Below, piece by piece: positions 1 through 44,348 of a stretch of 53,050 bases of DNA. How positions within the stretch are numbered: the first letter of the stretch is position 1; every line of letters begins with the position of its first letter. Both the position numbers and the translations under genes were made by a program. Location of the stretch: the IMG/VR virus record IMGVR_UViG_3300005095_000123, positions 1 through 53,050 of that record; one strand, 5' to 3'. Below the pieces are notes generated by a model. That model worked only from the letters and a program-made list of their open reading frames with translations. It was not told the origin of the DNA and ran no database searches. Source of the DNA: a virus (lineage: Duplodnaviria; Caudoviricetes).

Positions 1-142
1 GCCCGCCCTCCCCTATGATGGCCAGGGGGCCTATACCTAGGCCCCGCCGGCCTCTTCTTAACTTGTCCGAAAAATTTCCAAACGTTTGGAATGTTACTAT
101 TGTCGCTATCGTGCCAAGTAGGAGTTCGGTTTGGATTTAACT

Positions 143-559
143 TTAGTCCGCCGGGCGGGCTATGAGAATGTCGTCCGTGCATAGAAGGAGGGCCGGGCCG
201 GTCGTCGCCTCTATGAGGCCGGGCTTGCCGGACACCGTTACCTTTACCGGGGCCGTCGGACGGCAGGTAGTAAGAACCCTGGCCCCGGCCATGACCTTCA
301 CGTCCCGCCCGCCGTTTACTGTGCAAAGCCTAAGATCCCCTACCTGCTTAGAAGAAAAAGGAATACAACACCTCTCTCCGAAAAACGTCTTCTCGCAGGT
401 CTTCTCCGGCGTGGCCGTGAAGTCGAAGAACGTGTTTCGATAGAGCACGGTCCACGGCCCGGCCAGGTCCGTTACGTCAAAGGAGAATACCTTTACCACC
501 AAAGCCATCAACAAAACGAAGAGAATCATGATAACCATGAACGTGACCTTCCTTCTCAT
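143..559 (-). CDS. Hypothetical membrane-anchored or secreted protein immediately downstream of the array
   Basis: 138-aa ORF with AAAGGAGG RBS and an N-terminal basic plus hydrophobic segment (MRRKVTFMVIMILFVLLMALVV). Confidence 0.7.
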   Translation of the reverse strand: MRRKVTFMVIMILFVLLMALVVKVFSFDVTDLAGPWTVLYRNTFFDFTATPEKTCEKTFFGERCCIPFSSKQVGDLRLCTVNGGRDVKVMAGARVLTTCRPTAPVKVTVSGKPGLIEATTGPALLLCTDDILIARPAD

Positions 560-577
560 AAAGCCTCCTTTATTTTT

Positions 578-1648
578 TGGTAACGCTCGTGCATCATGGG
601 TTGCTATCTGCGCTCGGCACGCTTATCTATGTAGGATTTCTTTAGTCTAGCGGCCCGCTTCCTCTTTATGGGCCTCTACTTGTCGCCAGGCCCGCTAATA
701 TATAACGGGTTGCTTCAAAGGTTCGGCCCGCTTGCTATAAATGGGTGCCTGCATCACTTCGGCACGCTTTAAAGCGCGTGGTCTCCTCTTACATAACGGC
801 TCGCTAATGAGAATAGGGTTTCTTTAGGATATTGGCCCGCTAAACCTTTTTGGTCTCCTTACTTAGATTGGGCTCGCTACCTGAAATCTGGAGGCTCAAT
901 CCCACCGGCACGCTGTTTACCCAAGGACTCCTCGCATCGTAGCGGCACGCTGGTCAAGCATAGGGCGTCTCCCGATCTTCGGCTCGCTTGGTCCGTGCGG
1001 ACTGCTAGGACTTAACGGCCCGCTAAAATAACTAGGTCTTCTCAAATTCAGCGGCACGCTAAATAGCATACGGGCTACTTGATTCCCACGGCCCGCTCGG
1101 AGAAGCAGGGTATCTAAATTCTGGCGGCCCGCTAGTCAAAGAGCGGATTGCTTAACTTCCATGGCTCGCTTTTTCCGAAACGGGTTACTTAGTTTCCATG
1201 GCACGCTTCTCTACATAGGGAGTCTAAATCGAAACGGCTCGCTATGCCAATCGGGTCCCTTACATTCCACAGCTCGCTTTGTAAACTCCTGGTAGCTTGA
1301 TTTCCAAGGCCCGCTTCTGTAAACCGGTCATCTAAAGTTTAACGGCTCGCTCCGGCCTTTTAAGGGTAACTTGGCACCGACGGCCCGCATCTGTCCCTTT
1401 GGTTTACTCTACTAAATAAGGCACGCTGGGTCACCGTCGGCCTCCTTTTGCCTTTAGGCACGCTAGATATTGTCGGTTATCTTTGTGGCCCGTCGGCTCG
1501 CTTTTTGTCGTAGGTGGTCTAGCGCACAACGGCCCGCTATGATCTGTCGGTTATCTTCGAGAAGCGTGGCCCGCTTCAACATAGCCGGTCCTCTACCCTC
1601 TCTCGGCTCGCTCTTTTCGGTTGGGCACCTGAATACTAGCGGCGCTTC
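578..1648 (-). ncRNA. TIGR-like tandem interspaced guide RNA array, 29 units of ~36 nt
   Basis: 30 edge repeats (+ strand NGGCHCGCT, first and last degenerate) at 578, 615, 651, 688, 724, 760, 797, 833, 870, 906, 943, 980, 1016, 1052, 1089, 1125, 1162, 1199, 1235, 1270, 1307, 1343, 1381, 1419, 1456, 1494, 1530, 1567, 1604 and 1640. They alternate with 9-nt loop repeats (mostly NGGNNNNCT), separated by unique 8-11 nt (mostly 9 nt) spacers. Strand inferred from the flanking genes. Confidence 0.88.
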
Positions 1649-1908
1649 TTTTTCTTTCGCTTCATAGTCTTGACCTTGGCCTTCGACCAAAGTCTCTTAC
1701 CCTTCTTCGTTCTCTTACTCCTTAACAGGGCAACCGCCTTCGTCCGCCCTCCACGAGGGCCTTCCTTCTCCTTTATTCAAACAAGAACTTTTCGTCCCGG
1801 CTTCTTCGGAACGTCAACGTAGCGGTAGTCCTTACAGCCCCGACGAGTGGCTAGCTTCTCCCTTACATATTTGCCCGTCTTGTAGCGGTAGTATTTTGTT
1901 GTCGCCAT
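1636..1908 (-). CDS. Small very basic protein (90 aa) with in-frame UGA at codon 44; candidate selenoprotein or readthrough
   Basis: Manual translation MATTKYYRYKTGKYVREKLATRRGCKDYRYVDVPKKPGRKVLV-UGA-IKEKEGPRGGRTKAVALLRSKRTKKGKRLWSKAKVKTMKRKKKKRR. The ATG overlaps the upstream TAA (TAATG). Hairpin GCCCTC-GTG-GAGGGC starts 16 nt after the UGA. Confidence 0.6.
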
Positions 1909-2168
1909 TACTTCTTCTTCCTCTTCTTATTTGCCTTTAGAAACTTGGCCGCAAGATTCGCCCTCTTCCTGGTCTTAGGGTTGGGAGATCTCTTACCCTC
2001 TTCGATGCACTTCCACGTCACCTTCTTGTAGCCTTTACGCTGACAGTAGCGCCGGAAAGCTCCCTCGGTCCCCTTGCGCTTGATCTCCTCCTTTACTTCC
2101 TGCATCCACTTCTCTTTACTCTTCCGGCTTGACCTCGATGACCGGCGGGTCTTTTTTCGTTGGGCCAT
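1908..2168 (-). CDS. Small Lys/Arg-rich basic protein (86 aa), possible nucleic-acid-binding or condensing protein
   Basis: ATG at 2168 preceded by AGGAGG; sequence MAQRKKTRRSSRSSRK...KANKKRKKK. Confidence 0.7.
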   Translation of the reverse strand: MAQRKKTRRSSRSSRKSKEKWMQEVKEEIKRKGTEGAFRRYCQRKGYKKVTWKCIEEGKRSPNPKTRKRANLAAKFLKANKKRKKK

Positions 2169-2637
2169 TTCCGTCCTCCTTCGGTCCTTTTCCTCTATCT
2201 TGCCCGTCATCGGCCAAGCCTTCAATCTGAAACACGACCAGGTTTTGCTGGCCGCCTGCCTGCTTCTCACGTAGGAGCCCCTCTATCTTGGCCAGGAGCT
2301 CAAGCGCTTGAATCTTCTCCTGGGGCTTCGTCTTCGGATTCTCTACGATCCGCCGAATCTCCGTTACGAAGTAGTCCTTGCTTACGTTCTGCCGAAGCAC
2401 TATCACTTCCCGGTCGAGGGCGATGGCCTTCTTTACGATCTCCTCTTGGAGCCACTTTAGGGCTGTGGCCCGGCGGACGCCGGCCACCTTGCAAGCCTTG
2501 CTCAGGTCCCCGCCGGTGATCGTAAGGGCTCGGACGAAGGCCCGCTTCTTCTTGCCGAGCCTACGAAAGACCTTCTCCCGCTCTACGAGAGCATCTACTA
2601 TCTCAGTCGGCGCAAGGCTCGTTGGCAATGACGACAT
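2116..2637 (-). CDS. HTH protein, probable terminase small subunit
   Basis: HTH-like GGDLSKACKVAGVRRATALKWL followed by a TerS-like helical region (KIQALELLAKIEG); not adjacent to TerL. Confidence 0.55.
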   Translation of the reverse strand: MSSLPTSLAPTEIVDALVEREKVFRRLGKKKRAFVRALTITGGDLSKACKVAGVRRATALKWLQEEIVKKAIALDREVIVLRQNVSKDYFVTEIRRIVENPKTKPQEKIQALELLAKIEGLLREKQAGGQQNLVVFQIEGLADDGQDRGKGPKEDGNGPTKKDPPVIEVKPEE

Positions 2638-4003
2638 AGCCTTTCTCCTTTATGAGAGCATAGGTCCCCTGATCCATTTGAACGACTGGCGTGATCTTTC
2701 TCATCGCATCCGAGATGGCCTGCGTCAAATTGGCCCTCTTTGTCATTATCGCATCGAGTATTCCGTCGTTGATGGCCTGCTCTATCTCCGCCCCTGTGAG
2801 GGATTCGGAGACGGCCACCAATGCCTCCACGTCTATCTGGTCCCGCTTGGCCTTCGGAAGATTAAGGGCCTTGAGCTTTATCTTGATGATCTCCTCCCTC
2901 TCCGAGGCGAAAGGTGCGTCGAGAAAGAAGATCTTATCAAGACGACCGGCCCGTAAGAGCTCCGTGGGAATACGTGTGAAGTCGTTAGCCGTGAAGATGA
3001 AGAAGACCGGGGCCTGTGTCTCCTGCATGAAGAATAGGAGTTGCGAGAGCATCCGGGCCATGACCCCGGGATTGCCCATCGAATTGTAGCCGGAAAGCTC
3101 CTTCTCCACCTCGTCTATAAGGACTACACACTCGCCGACCCGCTCTATCGTAGAGAGGGCCTGGCGGAGATTGCTCTCTGAGTTCCCTATGTAGGGATTG
3201 AGCAAGGCCCCTATATTCAAGTGGAGAAGGGGCCGCCCTAGTTCATTAGCCACGGCCTTGGCCGAAAGAGTCTTTCCCGTCCCCGGCCATCCAGAGAGGA
3301 GCATCCCTCTCGGAGGCTTTAGTCCTAGCTTCCGCAATCTTCCGAAGTTCTTGAAGTAGAACTTGACCTTCTCGATATACTTCTTGAGTCTAGGAAGCCC
3401 GCCTATGTCGGAGAGCGTCACGTCAGAGCGGATCGTGTTAAGCAGACGGCTGGCATGAATTATCTTCTCCTTGGCCGTGCGCAGGATCTCCGGGTCGTTC
3501 TTGACAAGATAGATCGCCGTGATGCTCTCGACTTCCGTAAGGGAAAGTCCTACCAGCTCTCGGGCTATCTCCTCCGCCGTCTTCTTGTCTAAAGCAAACC
3601 CATCCTTTATATATGCGACGATTTCTTCCTCGGTCGGCGGAGGAAGTTCGTAGGAGACGAAGAGCGTCTCGGCCCCCTTCGGTAGCTCCATACCTATGTT
3701 GACTATATGGGCGTGCTTGCCACGGGCCTTACGGTAGAACTCTATGAGCCCCGGCCCGCCCTTCAAATTGTAGGTGATTACGGCACACGGGGCCTTGCGC
3801 AGGGCCTTGATGATAAAGTCGTCGTCAACGAACAGAGGATCACGACCACCGTCCACGCACTCGAGTCCGCCTTTGGTCATGAAGTAAACAGAGCCCATAG
3901 ACACGGCCTCGAAGGCTTCTCTTACTTTCTGTTCTGCGTGGATCGGATCTGCCGTGAATATCTGGATTAGCGGACAATCAGCCTTGAAGAATTGCTCTAA
4001 CAC
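2603..4003 (-). CDS. AAA+ ATPase (Ycf46-like)
   Basis: DIGGL, Walker A GWPGTGKT, Walker B VVLIDEVEK, second region of homology TAN...PTELLRAGRLD. Confidence 0.9.
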   Translation of the reverse strand: MLEQFFKADCPLIQIFTADPIHAEQKVREAFEAVSMGSVYFMTKGGLECVDGGRDPLFVDDDFIIKALRKAPCAVITYNLKGGPGLIEFYRKARGKHAHIVNIGMELPKGAETLFVSYELPPPTEEEIVAYIKDGFALDKKTAEEIARELVGLSLTEVESITAIYLVKNDPEILRTAKEKIIHASRLLNTIRSDVTLSDIGGLPRLKKYIEKVKFYFKNFGRLRKLGLKPPRGMLLSGWPGTGKTLSAKAVANELGRPLLHLNIGALLNPYIGNSESNLRQALSTIERVGECVVLIDEVEKELSGYNSMGNPGVMARMLSQLLFFMQETQAPVFFIFTANDFTRIPTELLRAGRLDKIFFLDAPFASEREEIIKIKLKALNLPKAKRDQIDVEALVAVSESLTGAEIEQAINDGILDAIMTKRANLTQAISDAMRKITPVVQMDQGTYALIKEKGYVVIANEPCAD

Positions 4004-4571
4004 CTGCGCCCTCCTTTTCTTCCTCCCTTATCCCGGCCAGATAGGACGACACGGCCCGGATGATCGCCTCCTTCCTCGACAAGTCGAGCTCCTCGGCGAG
4101 CGAGTCTATCAGCTCGGCCTCGTCCTGCGTAAGAGTGAGCGACATTCGGACGAAACCGTCTTTCTTCTCTCCGTAGTTTACTTGGAGCCAATTCTTGAAC
4201 TCCGCATAAGACATCTCTCTTGCGAGATGCAACATCTTATCCAGCTCCTCTCTTACGAGATGGATCTTCCCAAGGACGACCGCCGCCTCCTTGAACTTCG
4301 TCCAGTTTATTTCTTCAAGGTCTTTCGGCGTCAGTCCGTAATCACGCATTATCTCTCCGATCTTTACCATATACATGAAATACGAATACGACACCGGTAG
4401 CTGAAGCTCTACATATTCCCTGATCGTGTCGTAGCCCATCGCCCTCCATCCACCAAGCGAATAGAAAGCATAGGCGATCTGTGCTTTTTGATACCACGCC
4501 TTTGTTTCTATACGCATTACTTCTTTGAGCTTATCGCTAAGTGTTATTGCATTGTTCGTCTTGTCCGCCAT
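3978..4571 (-). CDS. DNA-binding protein with C-terminal ribbon-helix-helix (CopG-like) domain
   Basis: C-terminal VRMSLTLTQDEAELIDSLAEELDLSRKEAIIRAV fits the RHH pattern; N-terminal helical/HTH-like region. Confidence 0.6.
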   Translation of the reverse strand: MADKTNNAITLSDKLKEVMRIETKAWYQKAQIAYAFYSLGGWRAMGYDTIREYVELQLPVSYSYFMYMVKIGEIMRDYGLTPKDLEEINWTKFKEAAVVLGKIHLVREELDKMLHLAREMSYAEFKNWLQVNYGEKKDGFVRMSLTLTQDEAELIDSLAEELDLSRKEAIIRAVSSYLAGIREEEKEGAGVRAILQG

Positions 4572-4592
4572 CTTGTCCTCCTACCAATTCAT

Positions 4593-5042
4593 TCAAAATT
4601 CATTCAAAATTCTTTCAGCTTGTCTTCTATCTAGCAAAGGGAATACCGTTGACTCTACGATAGAGAAGTCGAACATGGACGCCAGATGGTCGAGCGAGCT
4701 GTATATGTCTCTCAACCCGTGGTAGATAATGAACTCGATGAATCTGTCGTCAACAGTCCTGCGTAGGCAAAATAGAGTCTTTCCGTCAGGCGTCCAAAAC
4801 AGCTTGTTGCATTTCTCCGTGTGGCAAAAGTTCTTTTTGATTAGACGCTTGATTATGTTCCTGGTAAGCGTCGCCGGCGACACGGCCCGCCGAATGTCAA
4901 CCGGCTTCCCGTTTATGATCCCGAACTCCACGAATCCTATCTTGAACAGCCGTCCGGGGGCCTTCTTTCGGTAGGGCTGTTCCTCGCACACCATGGCCAC
5001 GGTGTCCTCTGATAGGCGTGGGTCGAGGACGACTGTGGTCAT
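4593..5042 (-). CDS. Hypothetical protein
   Basis: ORF in a tightly packed minus-strand operon; start uncertain (ATG 5042). Confidence 0.55.
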   Translation of the reverse strand: MTTVVLDPRLSEDTVAMVCEEQPYRKKAPGRLFKIGFVEFGIINGKPVDIRRAVSPATLTRNIIKRLIKKNFCHTEKCNKLFWTPDGKTLFCLRRTVDDRFIEFIIYHGLRDIYSSLDHLASMFDFSIVESTVFPLLDRRQAERILNEF

Positions 5043-9367: not shown

Positions 9368-9698
9368 TATTTGGGATTTTCCCGCCGAGTTCGAGGGGGC
9401 GGTGATCGTCCACGAGAAGCAACGGGCGATCGCCTCTATTCCGGCCAAGTTTTATCGCAAGGGGCCTACGCTCCGCATTGTCCTCGAGAAGGACTGGGAA
9501 GGAAAATTCGGGAAGGAGAAGCTCTATCTCGGTATTAAATACCATGACGGTTTCCGCCCGTTTTTTATCCATCTCCTCGGGCGACCAGGAGACCGTCTGT
9601 TGTTGAAAAAGGATTTTGCGATAGTCACGGCCTCGGACGAGGCCGGAGTAAACCTATTAGATATAAAGGAGGGCACGGGAGATGAACGGAAGACTTAA
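9345..9698 (+). CDS. Hypothetical protein
   Basis: 117-aa ORF overlapping both neighbours. Confidence 0.6.
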   Translation: MPKLSVCDIWDFPAEFEGAVIVHEKQRAIASIPAKFYRKGPTLRIVLEKDWEGKFGKEKLYLGIKYHDGFRPFFIHLLGRPGDRLLLKKDFAIVTASDEAGVNLLDIKEGTGDERKT

Positions 9699-10341
9699 AA
9701 TCTTGACCAGTCTGCACTTTCAGGTCCAAAAGAACCGCATTCGCTTCAACAACGCATCAAAGGCGTTGGAGCGGGAAGGGCTCGGAGACGAGCGTGTGAG
9801 GGAGATTTATGAGGCGATCATTGACGACCTTCTACGGGCCGAGCGTGAAATTCAAGAAGAGATGATGATAGAGCTCAATGAAGAGGAGATCTATACCGAG
9901 TGGCTCAAGAAGGTTAAGGGTGTCGGACCCGTGATGGCGGCTTGGCTGGTAGGCTGGCTCGACCCGGAGAAGGCCGACACCGTGTCGGCCTTTTGGAAGT
10001 ATTGTGGCCTGCACGTGGAGGACGGACAGGCCCCCCGCCCCCGCAAGGGACAAAAGATAAACTGGAACCCGAAGCTCAAGGCCAAGTTGATGGGAGTGTT
10101 GGCGCCGTCATTCCTGCGGTCGAAATCTCCCTACGCCGACTTCTACTATCAATACAAGGAGAGGAAATTAAACCTGGGATGGAAGGAGGGTCATGCGCAT
10201 TTTGCGGCCCTTCGTTACATGGTAAAACAGTTCCTCAAGGATTTGTGGGTTACGTGGCGGGAGATGCTCGGTCTTCCCGTGCGCCCGCCCTACCACGTGG
10301 AGAAGCTCGGCTTGCACGATCACGCCCCGAAAGTGGCATGA
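9682..10341 (+). CDS. Nop/IS110-like RNA-binding-domain protein lacking a nuclease domain (TasA-like)
   Basis: Coiled coil followed by WLKKVKGVGPVMAAWLV...SAFWKYCGL...NWNPKLK...HAHFAALRYMVKQFL, resembling the IS110/IS116 C-terminal and Nop fold; no RuvC/DEDD or HNH domain; AAGGAGG RBS. Confidence 0.8.
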   Translation: MNGRLKILTSLHFQVQKNRIRFNNASKALEREGLGDERVREIYEAIIDDLLRAEREIQEEMMIELNEEEIYTEWLKKVKGVGPVMAAWLVGWLDPEKADTVSAFWKYCGLHVEDGQAPRPRKGQKINWNPKLKAKLMGVLAPSFLRSKSPYADFYYQYKERKLNLGWKEGHAHFAALRYMVKQFLKDLWVTWREMLGLPVRPPYHVEKLGLHDHAPKVA

Positions 10342-41897: not shown

Positions 41898-44348
41898 CTA
41901 TAAAGCGCCTATTTTTTTCCGTAATTTCGCCCATGAGTATTCCTCCAATTCTCCGTCGTATTCTTTCAGGTCGGCCCAGGAGCGTCCGCAGGACCCGTCG
42001 GACTCTACCTTGTAGCCGACCTTTATTCCAAAATGCTTGCGGACGTAGGCCGGAGCCCCCTGCTCGAGGGCAAATTTTAACAGGCCCATCGCCCGCGGGA
42101 ACTCCTCCTCCGGCCCGTAGAAGCGGATGTCGTCGTGAATGAACACCCGCATCCTCGACCGAAGGCCGAGCTTTTTCGCCCACCGGTTGAATAAATAGCC
42201 TCCTATGAGGCCCAGGTCCGAGGAAAAATTCTGGATTATGAAATTGATGGCCTGCCGCCAGGCTCTTTCCTTTTCAGCCTTGGTCATCCGATCGAAGTTC
42301 GGGAAACGTCTCTTCCTACCCAAGACCCCCCGGACGTATTTGTAGCGGGAGAGTATCTCCCACACCTTGTTGTGAAATTTAACGATCTCCGGGTAGGCGG
42401 CGAAGAATTTTTCGACCTTTTCCGTCGCCTCCTCGAGGCTCATGTCTATGCCGTAGTCCACGAGGGCCGTCCGCTGGACCGTCCGAGGCGTGCCCCGGTA
42501 GATGAGTCCGAAATTGATGGGCTTGGCCGCCTGACGCATTTCCTTCGTTACTTCCTCCTCCGGCACGCCCGATATAAATGAGGCCGTAAGGCGGTGCGGG
42601 TCCTTACCGGTGGCGAAGCATTCTAGGAGCAGGGTGACGCCGGCCAGCCAGGCCATTATTCGCAGTTCGGACTGTGAAAGGTCTCTGCTCCCTATCAGCC
42701 ATCCCTCTGGGGCAACAAATACTTCGTTTATCTTTTCGAGGTAGGGGAGGCCCCGCTTAGGTATATTCTGCATATTCGGGTTGAACGAGGCCGTCCTACC
42801 GGTAACCGTCCGCCACAGGACGAAGTTCGGATAGATCTTCCGGCCACGGAGCCTCTTCTCTACGCCTTTCAAATAGGTTCCTAGGAGCTTCTCCAGCTTC
42901 TTAATATGGATGTATTTCTTGACGATCTCATTGTCGCCGTAGTGTATTTCGAGGTCGTCGGCGCTGAGTGCCGGAAGACCGCTACCCGTGTAGGCAAAGG
43001 GCTTTAGCCGGAGCCCCTTCGGATGCGTAAAGAACCACTCCCGGAAGAGCCGGTCGGTCGTTATCTTCAACCGTCCTTCGTATTTCTTCGCCAGCTCTTT
43101 CGGCAGGTGTTTGAAGAGCTCGGCGGTCTCCTCGATGATCTTTTTCTCTATGAAGCGGATGTTTTCTTTCAGCTTCTCCACGTCCACGTCTATACCGGCC
43201 ATAGACATTTCGGCGAGCAGGTCCGTTATCGGCAGGACGAACCGGACCCAATAGCGGTAGAGGAGGGGATCTTTTACTAGCTTCTTGTGCATCTTTATGA
43301 AGGAGTCGTAGGTGGCCCGGGCGTCTATGCCCGCATAGGCCACCAACTGATGCCGAGGCATTTGCGACGGGGTGTGCCGCAGGCCGCCGGCCACGTCCTT
43401 GATGTTGTTCCATTTTGTATAAGCCGAGGCGATGTTTTCCAAAGAGATGTCCATATTCTCGTCGAGGAGATGGGCCATAGGGAACAGGTCTATCCAGCGT
43501 GGGCCTTTGTAAGGGATCTTGAGGGCCTTACAGGTCTCCTCTTCGACGGGGCGGTTGGCCACGACGAGAAGCCGACCCGGCTTCACCACGTTTCGGAGGG
43601 ACTTTTCCATGTTTTCTCCGTCGGCTACGACAACCGTTTTCCTCTCTGTGGCGAAGGAAAGGGCATAGACCCTGCGCCTACCGTTTTCTTCCTCGAACTC
43701 CGAGTCGAAGGCGACCACCTTGGCCGCCGTCCAGTAGGGACGTTTCAGGTCTATCACGTCGCACTTCGTCTCCGCCTCGGAGATCTCCTCGCCGAGAAGG
43801 GGCCGAAGAACGGCCTTCAAGTCGTTTTTCCAGATGGCCATAAGGGAGGCCGGCTTTCCCATGCGGATCAAGTAGGAGGGATGGAAGGCCGCCCCGGCCA
43901 GGTATCCGCCGAGGTCGAACAAGCGTCCCCGGGCGTCCTTATAGGCCGCTCTCGGTATGACCGCCCTGGAGGCTATCTCCCCTAAACAGAGGACAACCTT
44001 CGGCCCGACGATCTCGATGCATTGCCGGATGTTGTCCTTACAGGTCTTTACGGCCTTCCTTATGTCCGCTTTTTCCTCTATGACGCAGAGACAGGCGTTC
44101 GTAATCGAATACTTCTCTCGGCCCAAGCCGGCTATCTCCTCCAGGGTGCTCATGAGGAGCTGACCGGATTCCCCTACGAAGGGCCGGCCCGCCCTTTCCT
44201 CGGCCTTCCAAGGGGCCTCTCCCACGATCAACAGGTCCGTGCCGGGCCGGAGCTCCGGCGGGACCTTTGGAAACCTGTTATAAGCGGCGCATTCCTTACA
44301 GCGCAGTTTGATCTTAGGCTTGCTCGTCGACATTTGCATCCTCCCCAA
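41898..44348 (-). CDS. polA: Family A DNA polymerase with N-terminal uracil-DNA-glycosylase-like domain and 3'-5' exonuclease
   Basis: UDG family 4 motifs VGEAP...PFVGESG and HPSY; exonuclease FDSE; polymerase motifs DLSQSELR, RQAAKPINFGLIY, IHDD. Confidence 0.93.
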   Translation of the reverse strand: MGRMQMSTSKPKIKLRCKECAAYNRFPKVPPELRPGTDLLIVGEAPWKAEERAGRPFVGESGQLLMSTLEEIAGLGREKYSITNACLCVIEEKADIRKAVKTCKDNIRQCIEIVGPKVVLCLGEIASRAVIPRAAYKDARGRLFDLGGYLAGAAFHPSYLIRMGKPASLMAIWKNDLKAVLRPLLGEEISEAETKCDVIDLKRPYWTAAKVVAFDSEFEEENGRRRVYALSFATERKTVVVADGENMEKSLRNVVKPGRLLVVANRPVEEETCKALKIPYKGPRWIDLFPMAHLLDENMDISLENIASAYTKWNNIKDVAGGLRHTPSQMPRHQLVAYAGIDARATYDSFIKMHKKLVKDPLLYRYWVRFVLPITDLLAEMSMAGIDVDVEKLKENIRFIEKKIIEETAELFKHLPKELAKKYEGRLKITTDRLFREWFFTHPKGLRLKPFAYTGSGLPALSADDLEIHYGDNEIVKKYIHIKKLEKLLGTYLKGVEKRLRGRKIYPNFVLWRTVTGRTASFNPNMQNIPKRGLPYLEKINEVFVAPEGWLIGSRDLSQSELRIMAWLAGVTLLLECFATGKDPHRLTASFISGVPEEEVTKEMRQAAKPINFGLIYRGTPRTVQRTALVDYGIDMSLEEATEKVEKFFAAYPEIVKFHNKVWEILSRYKYVRGVLGRKRRFPNFDRMTKAEKERAWRQAINFIIQNFSSDLGLIGGYLFNRWAKKLGLRSRMRVFIHDDIRFYGPEEEFPRAMGLLKFALEQGAPAYVRKHFGIKVGYKVESDGSCGRSWADLKEYDGELEEYSWAKLRKKIGAL

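Follow-up and report, generated by a model that had tools for sequence, protein, structure and literature searches.

A phage gene with an in-frame UGA at a conserved cysteine position is a candidate selenoprotein gene

A small and very basic gene of a tailed phage (Duplodnaviria; Caudoviricetes) carries an in-frame UGA exactly where its relatives have a conserved cysteine, and the sequence following this codon is still under protein-level selection. It therefore most likely encodes a selenoprotein with selenocysteine (Sec) at codon 44, paired with Cys25 and decoded by the Sec machinery of the host, although selenium incorporation and a Sec-competent host are inferred. The gene was identified in a DNA stretch of 53,050 nucleotides, hereafter the window, corresponding to positions 1 to 53,050 of IMG/VR record IMGVR_UViG_3300005095_000123.

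A basic phage gene interrupted by an in-frame UGA

The features of the locus are listed in table 1. As stated in the original prediction, 43 codons precede the TGA, 46 sense codons follow it, and a perfect 6-bp hairpin starts 16 nt after it. Gene callers stored the first part as a 43-aa protein. TGA is otherwise a stop codon in this genome, as also noted in the original prediction: it ends 19 of 63 ORFs in a crude greedy ORF set of the window, and 3 of 12 in L005, a related phage contig described below. There is therefore no global recoding. The 90-codon gene would encode a small, very basic and mostly beta-strand protein.

Table 1. Features of the candidate selenoprotein locus and of its context in the window
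Feature	Coordinates	Strand	Description
Upstream small basic gene	1911..2165	-	85 aa from ATG 2165, the ORF reaching GTG 2270; TAA at 1910-1908; translationally coupled; no Pfam or PHROG family; a homologue lies next to the family member in L005
First part of the gene	1780..1908	-	43 codons (Met1-Val43); ATG 1908-1906 overlaps the TAA of the upstream gene by one base
Cys25 codon	1834..1836	-	TGT, partner of the recoded codon
In-frame TGA	1777..1779	-	Codon 44, proposed Sec codon
Hairpin	1746..1760	-	GCCCUC-GUG-GAGGGC, 6 bp with GUG loop, in the codons of the conserved GPRGG motif; candidate bacterial-type SECIS
Second part of the gene	1639..1776	-	46 codons (Ile45-Arg90): conserved GPRGGRTKAVALLR block and Lys/Arg tail
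Stop codon	1636..1638	-	TAG of the 90-codon gene, on the first, degenerate array repeat
First array repeat	about 1645-1638	-	AGCGCCGC, degenerate
TIGR-type array	616..1645	-	28 units, period 35-38 nt, each AGCGNGCC + about 10 nt + AG-N4-CC + about 10 nt; starts at the stop codon of the gene
TasA-like gene	9682..10341	+	219 aa; likely partner of the array

Searches for a known family or fold gave nothing. No Pfam or PHROG family was detected for the 43-aa, 46-aa, or 90-aa products, or for 26 members of the family. A profile search of the PDB gave no hits, Foldseek against the PDB gave no hits at E <= 1e-3, a wide VIA-align search gave a best Z of 3.3, BFVD gave only one unnamed family member, and ESM Atlas scores were below 0.8. 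Only the strand assignment is known. Blastn of positions 1-4600 against deposited phages gave no match, and a search for related loci with the single protein found no relatives.

Homology and selection across the UGA

We searched 1.84 billion representative proteins with the read-through product using phmmer. We obtained 25 hits at E <= 1e-3, 13 of them at E <= 1e-10. All are uninterrupted proteins of 57-140 aa that span the TGA, and the best covers query residues 4-82 at 71% identity. The TGA column is Cys in 18 of these 25 homologues. Strikingly, this column co-varies perfectly with that of Cys25. Among 72 unique family sequences, both columns are Cys in 56, including three TGA forms, and both are non-Cys in 14. 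The two remaining sequences are one with a gap and a Ser and one N-terminally truncated fragment, and there is no true mixed case. The 14 members without either Cys indicate, however, that the pair is not essential.

Remarkably, two related phage contigs, L005 (identical to L036) and L035, which are 98% identical to each other, carry TGA at the first Cys column and TGT at the second. They fall with the window and a Cys/Cys protein, P0001, in one clade of five sequences (support 92/85). Random nonsense mutations are unlikely to land at these positions, as only 2 of 51 single-base routes to a stop codon in this gene lie on the two Cys codons. In addition, two proteins from other assemblies, P0027 (42 aa, 93% identical) and P0044 (41 aa, 76% identical), both end just before column 44, although in these cases the stop codon itself was not seen.

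The TGA persists in diverged variants. A 529-nt contig of run X1, 96% identical to the window, covers positions 1402-1930 with 21 differences and keeps the TGA. Sixteen differences that lie in the gene fall in 13 codons and all are synonymous; 13 of these 16, in 10 of the 13 codons, come after the TGA. In 200,000 random trials, 13 substitutions in that stretch were never all synonymous. In the comparison of the window with L005, synonymous sites are saturated, whereas pN is 0.05, 0.24, and 0.22 in the three segments. Between L005 and L035, we observed after their TGA four synonymous changes, two replacements, and one shifted terminal stop; the gene of L035 itself ends in TGA.

These data leave little room for a recent nonsense mutation in a decaying gene, or for a sequencing or assembly error. 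Such an event requires a single base change from TGT or TGC in a metagenome assembly, but the independently assembled variant, the synonymous divergence, the two truncated proteins ending at the same column, and the second TGA site in sister contigs bring this possibility close to refutation. An ordinary 43-aa gene followed by a noncoding, purine-rich leader of the array, with the hairpin as an RNA or terminator element of the array, is even less likely. The minus strand is indeed purine-rich, other frames are also open in this region, and the hairpin followed by a T-rich tail scores as terminator-like on the plus strand. However, this reading is contradicted by the homology of the 46 codons to uninterrupted proteins, by their synonymous-only divergence, and by the occurrence of the family without any array at other loci.

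It is also very unlikely that translation ends at the UGA and restarts to produce two polypeptides that assemble. In L005, an in-frame GTG lies nine codons after the TGA and gene callers start a 55-56 aa product there, and in the window an AAGGAG lies just after the TGA. Yet in the window no ATG, GTG, or TTG is found in frame between the TGA and codon 79, while codons 45-66 are strictly conserved. Furthermore, the break points differ between lineages and coincide with the Cys pair.

The candidate SECIS hairpin and the decoding of the UGA

The hairpin complies with the constraints of the bSECIS model (PMC13188914): a loop of 3-9 nt (3 nt here), a stem of 4-16 bp (6 bp here), a G in the first two loop positions (here G first, followed by U), 16-37 nt from the UGA to the loop (22 nt here), and an energy <= -7.5 kcal/mol (-9.1 kcal/mol here). 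In the X1 variant, changes at 1759 and 1747 convert one C-G pair into U-A, whereas either change alone would weaken the stem to -6.4 or -5.4. By our own estimate, however, this single compensatory pair has a chance probability of roughly 2-4%. The hairpin alone is weak evidence. Among the 1149 TGA triplets of the window, 85 (7.4%) are followed by a hairpin complying with the same simple model and 55 (4.8%) by one at least as stable, and the overall folding is no better than that of shuffled sequences (z -0.25 and -0.5). The hairpin is not specific to the TGA form: the GPRGG codons are prone to form it, and 3 of 44 other unique family genes have an equally stable hairpin after column 2, two of which are Ala forms with the same 6-bp/3-nt shape. 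At 70 C, the hairpin is not in the predicted minimum-energy fold, and in the X1 variant another fold is predicted to be more stable. The hairpin after the TGA of L005 and L035 (5 bp, 15-nt loop, -5.8 and -6.6 kcal/mol) fails two of the bSECIS constraints and ranks only within the top 8 of 45. An Rfam search of positions 1-2400 gave only an insignificant C/D-box hit inside the array (E 4.3), and no general bacterial SECIS model matched.

As the selection on the downstream frame requires only that it be translated, programmed or leaky read-through without Sec, in which a near-cognate tRNA (Trp, Cys, or Arg) reads the UGA in a fraction of ribosomes to give a mix of 43-aa and 90-aa products, must be considered. 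The modest hairpin evidence, the poor fit of the L005 and L035 hairpins, the unproven Sec machinery of the host, and the tRNA-Trp(CCA) encoded by the L005 phage keep this alternative alive, the last for that lineage. We consider it unlikely, as it does not explain why the UGA sits at one or the other of two co-varying Cys columns in two lineages. Moreover, the short products (43 aa here, 23 aa in L005) would each be only part of one predicted beta-sheet domain, and the window has no tRNA gene. In the read-through protein A1 of RNA phage Qbeta, the UGA, probably read by tRNA-Trp, would end a complete coat protein and the nature of the inserted residue would not matter. Here, the UGA lies inside predicted strand 39-46 of one domain, at a conserved Cys column, and all 25 relatives are continuous across it.

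The host is unknown, and evidence for Sec use in a possible host group is indirect. A partial Thermodesulfobacteriota MAG (G001) holds a Cys-form family member on a 3.5-kb scaffold. This MAG has selD with an in-frame TGA (340 bits) and a tRNA-Sec (80.5 bits, also found with ARAGORN), but selA was not found in this partial genome and SelB appears only as a C-terminal fragment (E 2e-4). The link is weak, as it rests on a short scaffold and a Cys-form relative, and other family members are labeled by their sources as Nitrososphaerota, Archaeoglobaceae, or Pacearchaeota MAGs. The large terminase matched 8 of 401 genomes sampled from the phylum of G001, best at 38-41% identity, without another phylum as control, and the host assignment stayed inconclusive. 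Neither the window nor the L005 phage encodes tRNA-Sec, selB, or selD.

We propose that the SelB-GTP-Sec-tRNA(Sec) complex of the host is recruited by the hairpin, so that Sec is inserted instead of the chain ending. Sec44 would take the place of the second Cys of the pair and most likely forms a selenenylsulfide bridge, or a shared metal or redox site, between two neighboring predicted strands. The pairing of Sec44 with Cys25 suggested in the original prediction is supported by the co-variation and by the sister contigs, but its suggestion of a nucleic-acid-binding protein remains a guess from charge alone.

The neighboring TIGR array and comparison with known selenoproteins

The original prediction also suggested a link between selenium and the adjacent array, which is not supported. 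None of the 66 family loci fetched from other contigs has such an array within its flanks, so the adjacency looks incidental. The array has the architecture described for TIGR-Tas systems (PMC12045711), with 36-37-nt units containing two boxed elements and two roughly 10-nt spacers. The protein encoded about 8 kb away on the other strand matches in the PDB TasH chains (phmmer E 2.2e-17) and 9mty_A (E 9.6e-27), with a weak Pfam Transposase_20 hit, although the Pfam Nop model itself found nothing. The loop element of the 28 units is conserved only at AG...CC.

Like bacterial selenoproteins with Cys-containing homologues, which seem to include families with Sec at either position of a redox pair (UxxC or CxxU), this gene combines an in-frame UGA between conserved sequences, Cys at the aligned position in homologues, a hairpin just downstream inside the coding region, and Sec, as proposed here, at one or the other member of a Cys pair. 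It differs by being encoded by a phage and by specifying a 90-aa basic beta-protein that is not a recognizable oxidoreductase. Its Cys pair is 18 residues apart rather than in a CxxC-type motif. It is absent from some members, so a structural rather than catalytic role is plausible. The viral selenoproteins named in a review (PMC8310308) are the glutathione peroxidases of two poxviruses, molluscum contagiosum virus and fowlpox virus. They also rely on the host machinery to read a UGA as Sec, and in fowlpox the SECIS lies in the coding region. However, these are captured cellular GPx genes of eukaryotic viruses with eukaryotic-type SECIS, whereas the present gene has a bacterial-type arrangement in a prokaryotic virus and belongs to a family that we found only in viral, metagenomic, and MAG contigs. 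In the deposited phage genomes searched, the only member is gp86 of the 178-kb Thermus phage phiLo (AYJ73938.1, hypothetical protein; tblastn E 1e-5, 57% identity over residues 15-63), a Cys/Cys form with no UGA and no annotated function.

Full-text literature searches returned no report of a natural bacteriophage selenoprotein, and a 2026 review of prokaryotic selenoproteomes contains no occurrence of "phage", "virus", or "viral". It is possible, though tentative, that this is the first selenoprotein family of prokaryotic viruses. In this view, in phages from hydrothermal settings, either member of the Cys pair of a small basic structural or DNA-associated protein has been converted to Sec, independently at the two positions, resulting in a selenenylsulfide cross-link that forms even under reducing conditions. 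Conversion would be easy because the codons of the conserved Gly/Pro motifs (GPRGG, VP...PGR) already fold into SECIS-like hairpins at the right distance from each Cys codon, and such a phage would depend on, and report, the Sec capacity and selenium supply of its host.

If confirmed, this gene would show that phages can use the Sec machinery of their host for their own proteins, that gene callers cut such genes in two, the databases holding 43-aa and 55-aa fragments, and that Sec can replace either partner of a Cys pair in a non-enzyme-like protein. It would also provide a simple marker for phages of Sec-using hosts and a compact natural UGA-plus-hairpin module for the study of bacterial SECIS recognition.

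Conservation of the reading frame across the UGA

The window is a whole 53,050-bp virus record, described as linear and about 87% complete, with phage replication, packaging, and head genes. All the elements of the original prediction, which proposed a translationally coupled ORF with an in-frame UGA and a SECIS-like hairpin running into an array, were found at the predicted places. The ATG overlaps by one base the TAA of an upstream small basic gene, and the TGA is preceded by 43 codons and followed by 46 more sense codons (see table).

Location of the candidate selenoprotein gene and of related or neighboring features
Feature	Location	Strand	Description
Start codon	window 1908-1906	-	ATG
In-frame TGA	window 1779-1777	-	codon 44
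Hairpin	window 1760-1746	-	GCCCUC-GUG-GAGGGC, starting 16 nt after the UGA
Stop codon	window 1638-1636	-	TAG
Upstream gene	window 1911-2165	-	85-aa basic protein
Array	window 616-1645	-	28 units, period of 35-38 nt
TasA-like protein	window 9682-10341	+	219 aa
Rfam match	window 1416-1493	-	C/D-box snoRNA family, E 4.3
Polymerase fusion	window 41898-44348	-	816-aa protein
Contig of run X1	window 1402-1930		529 nt
Cluster of differences in X1	window 1711-1737		codons 58-66 of the gene
Gene sharing the upstream motif	L005 4273-4521		82 aa
Segment sharing the upstream motif	L001 about 4001-4102		part of a 543-aa protein
tRNA-Trp	L078 1499-1574		anticodon CCA; record G002, the phage of L005
selD	L073 (G001:C40:3653-4585)		one in-frame TGA
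tRNA-Sec	G001:C92

An ordinary stop, with the purine-rich 138 nt after the TGA as a noncoding leader of the array, was the first reading considered, but it proved wrong. A phmmer search of the read-through product against 1.84 billion representative proteins returned 25 hits at E <= 1e-3, 13 of them at E <= 1e-10. All are uninterrupted proteins of 57-140 aa, and the best covers residues 4-82 at 71% identity. The block after the TGA (GPRGG-R/K-TKAVALLR) is the most conserved part of the family. No Pfam, PHROG, or PDB relative and no recognizable fold were identified, although AlphaFold gives a confident small model with five strands and one helix (pLDDT 87.3). The only member in the deposited phage genomes searched is the hypothetical protein gp86 of Thermus phage phiLo.

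In the alignment, the UGA column is Cys in 18 of 25 representatives. By adding genes read from 17 viral, 48 metagenomic, and 1 genomic loci, we obtained 72 unique proteins. The column of Cys25 and the column of codon 44 are both Cys (or TGA) in 56 of these and both non-Cys in 14 (T/A 7, A/A 5, V/G 2). One row has a gap/Ser and one is an N-terminally cut fragment, and no true mixed case occurs. The two residues therefore behave as a pair. They lie at the start of predicted strand 25-32 and inside predicted strand 39-46, respectively.

The contigs L005 (identical to L036) and L035, which are 98% identical to each other, carry the reciprocal arrangement. Their gene reads ...RRG-TGA-TKQF... with TGT at the second column, so that the partner Cys is the UGA. 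In a maximum-likelihood tree, these two, the window, the Cys/Cys protein P0001, and the long-branched P0004 form one clade (support 92/85), which suggests two separate Cys-to-UGA changes in close relatives. Only 2 of the 51 single-base routes to a stop codon in this gene fall on the two Cys codons. Two random nonsense hits both landing there are therefore unlikely (about 0.15% by our arithmetic).

The UGA also persists in a diverged variant. One public run (X1, labeled hydrothermal vent metagenome) holds a contig that differs from the window at 21 positions, of which 18 are listed, and the TGA is not among them. The 16 listed differences inside the gene fall in 13 codons, 3 before the UGA and 10 after it, and all are synonymous, including two-step Leu and Arg changes. 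Thirteen random substitutions in the 138 nt after the UGA were all synonymous in 0 of 200,000 trials. Eleven of the 16 differences are packed into 27 nt. This looks like a recombination tract from a more distant allele with the same protein sequence, or alternatively could be a remodeling of RNA structure downstream of the hairpin. Against L005, synonymous sites are saturated, whereas pN is 0.05, 0.24, and 0.22 in the three segments. Between L005 and L035, we observed after their UGA 4 synonymous changes, 2 replacements, and one change that moves the terminal stop. Two more gene calls from other assemblies, P0027 (42 aa, 93% identical) and P0044 (41 aa, 76% identical), known to us as proteins only, end exactly before column 44. 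A sequencing error, a fresh pseudogene, and a genuine 43-aa gene are therefore close to excluded. Nor is the code changed: TGA ends 19 of 63 ORFs of a crude greedy set in the window, including the AAA ATPase, terminase, and portal genes, as well as 3 of 12 ORFs in L005 and L035's own gene.

Candidate SECIS hairpin and decoding machinery

The hairpin satisfies all four constraints of the bacterial SECIS model as given in a 2026 review (PMC13188914): the loop is 3 nt long and starts with G then U, the stem has 6 bp, the distance from the UGA to the loop is 22 nt, and the energy is -9.1 kcal/mol. In the X1 variant, the two Gly wobble bases that pair with each other (1759 and 1747) have both changed, turning C-G into U-A. 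Either change alone would weaken the stem, and we estimate the chance of this at a few percent. However, the hairpin evidence remains modest. Among the 1149 TGA triplets in the window, 7.4% are followed by a hairpin that fits the model and 4.8% by one as stable, and so is 1 of the 19 TGA-ended ORFs. The fold of the whole stretch is no better than shuffles, and at 70 C, and in the variant, other folds are predicted. Three of 44 other unique family genes have an equally stable hairpin after column 2, two of them Ala forms with the same shape, because Gly and Pro codons are complementary. In L009 and L012, Ala/Ala family members, a perfect 6-bp/3-nt hairpin lies in the GPRGG codons at the same place as the candidate SECIS. 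The codons of this motif therefore form it without any UGA. The hairpin after the UGA of L005 and L035 (5 bp, 15-nt loop) fails two constraints.

The phages encode no tRNA-Sec, selB, or selD, and any Sec insertion must use the machinery of a host that is itself unknown. The phage of L005, with TGA at the first Cys column, encodes a tRNA-Trp. A Cys-form relative lies on a 3.5-kb scaffold binned in a partial (1.1 Mb) Thermodesulfobacteriota MAG (G001). This MAG has a tRNA-Sec, a selD whose in-frame TGA suggests a Sec-containing SelD, and a possible SelB C-terminal fragment, but no selA was found in this partial genome. As other relatives are labeled by their sources as archaeal MAGs, binning is not a safe guide. 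The HU, RecA, DnaB-type helicase, and family A polymerase genes of the window suggest, by inference, a bacterial host. An 816-aa protein of the window fuses a uracil-DNA-glycosylase-superfamily domain, a 3'-5' exonuclease, and a family A DNA polymerase.

The neighboring TIGR-type array

The stop codon of the gene abuts an array in which each unit consists of the edge element AGCGNGCC, about 10 nt, a loop element conserved only as AG-N4-CC, and about 10 nt. This matches the TIGR array architecture (PMC12045711). About 8 kb away, on the other strand, the window encodes a protein that matches solved TasH chains (E 2.2e-17) and 9mty_A (E 9.6e-27), although the Pfam Nop model misses it. The guide array of the original prediction is therefore a TIGR array with a likely TasA-like partner. 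The only Rfam match in positions 1-2400, an insignificant hit to a C/D-box snoRNA family, lies inside this array, which is curious given the reported likeness of tigRNAs to box C/D guides.

None of the 66 family loci from other contigs has such an array in its flanks. In L005, the gene lies between an endolysin and a homolog of the window's upstream basic gene, near the major head gene. The window's upstream protein and this homolog share a motif (G-x-F-R-x-[YW]-C ... KRSPNPK-x-RKRA), which also appears as a segment of a protein in an unrelated 84-kb viral contig (L001). The upstream protein has no Pfam or PHROG family. The proposed tie between selenium and array processing is thus unsupported. 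Co-transcription remains possible, because no minus-strand terminator-like site was found; the array sits inside a minus-strand operon between the candidate Sec gene and a 138-aa membrane-like gene.

A candidate phage selenoprotein

We found no report of a natural phage selenoprotein in the literature searched, supplements excluded. One review names only two poxviruses (PMC8310308), and the review that gives the SECIS model never mentions phage or virus (PMC13188914). The gene fulfills the classical computational criteria for a selenoprotein gene: conservation on both sides of the UGA, Cys homologs, a SECIS-like hairpin, and UGA used as a stop elsewhere. These are reinforced by the reciprocal UGA site and by synonymous-only divergence. 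Selenocysteine at codon 44 is the likely reading, although Sec insertion itself and a Sec-competent host are inferred. Read-through without Sec is unlikely but is the strongest alternative, a split gene is less likely still, a pseudogene or error is improbable, and an ordinary stop is very improbable. One reading, which is an inference, is that the conserved Gly/Pro motifs of the family pre-form SECIS-like hairpins, which would make Cys-to-Sec conversion easy.
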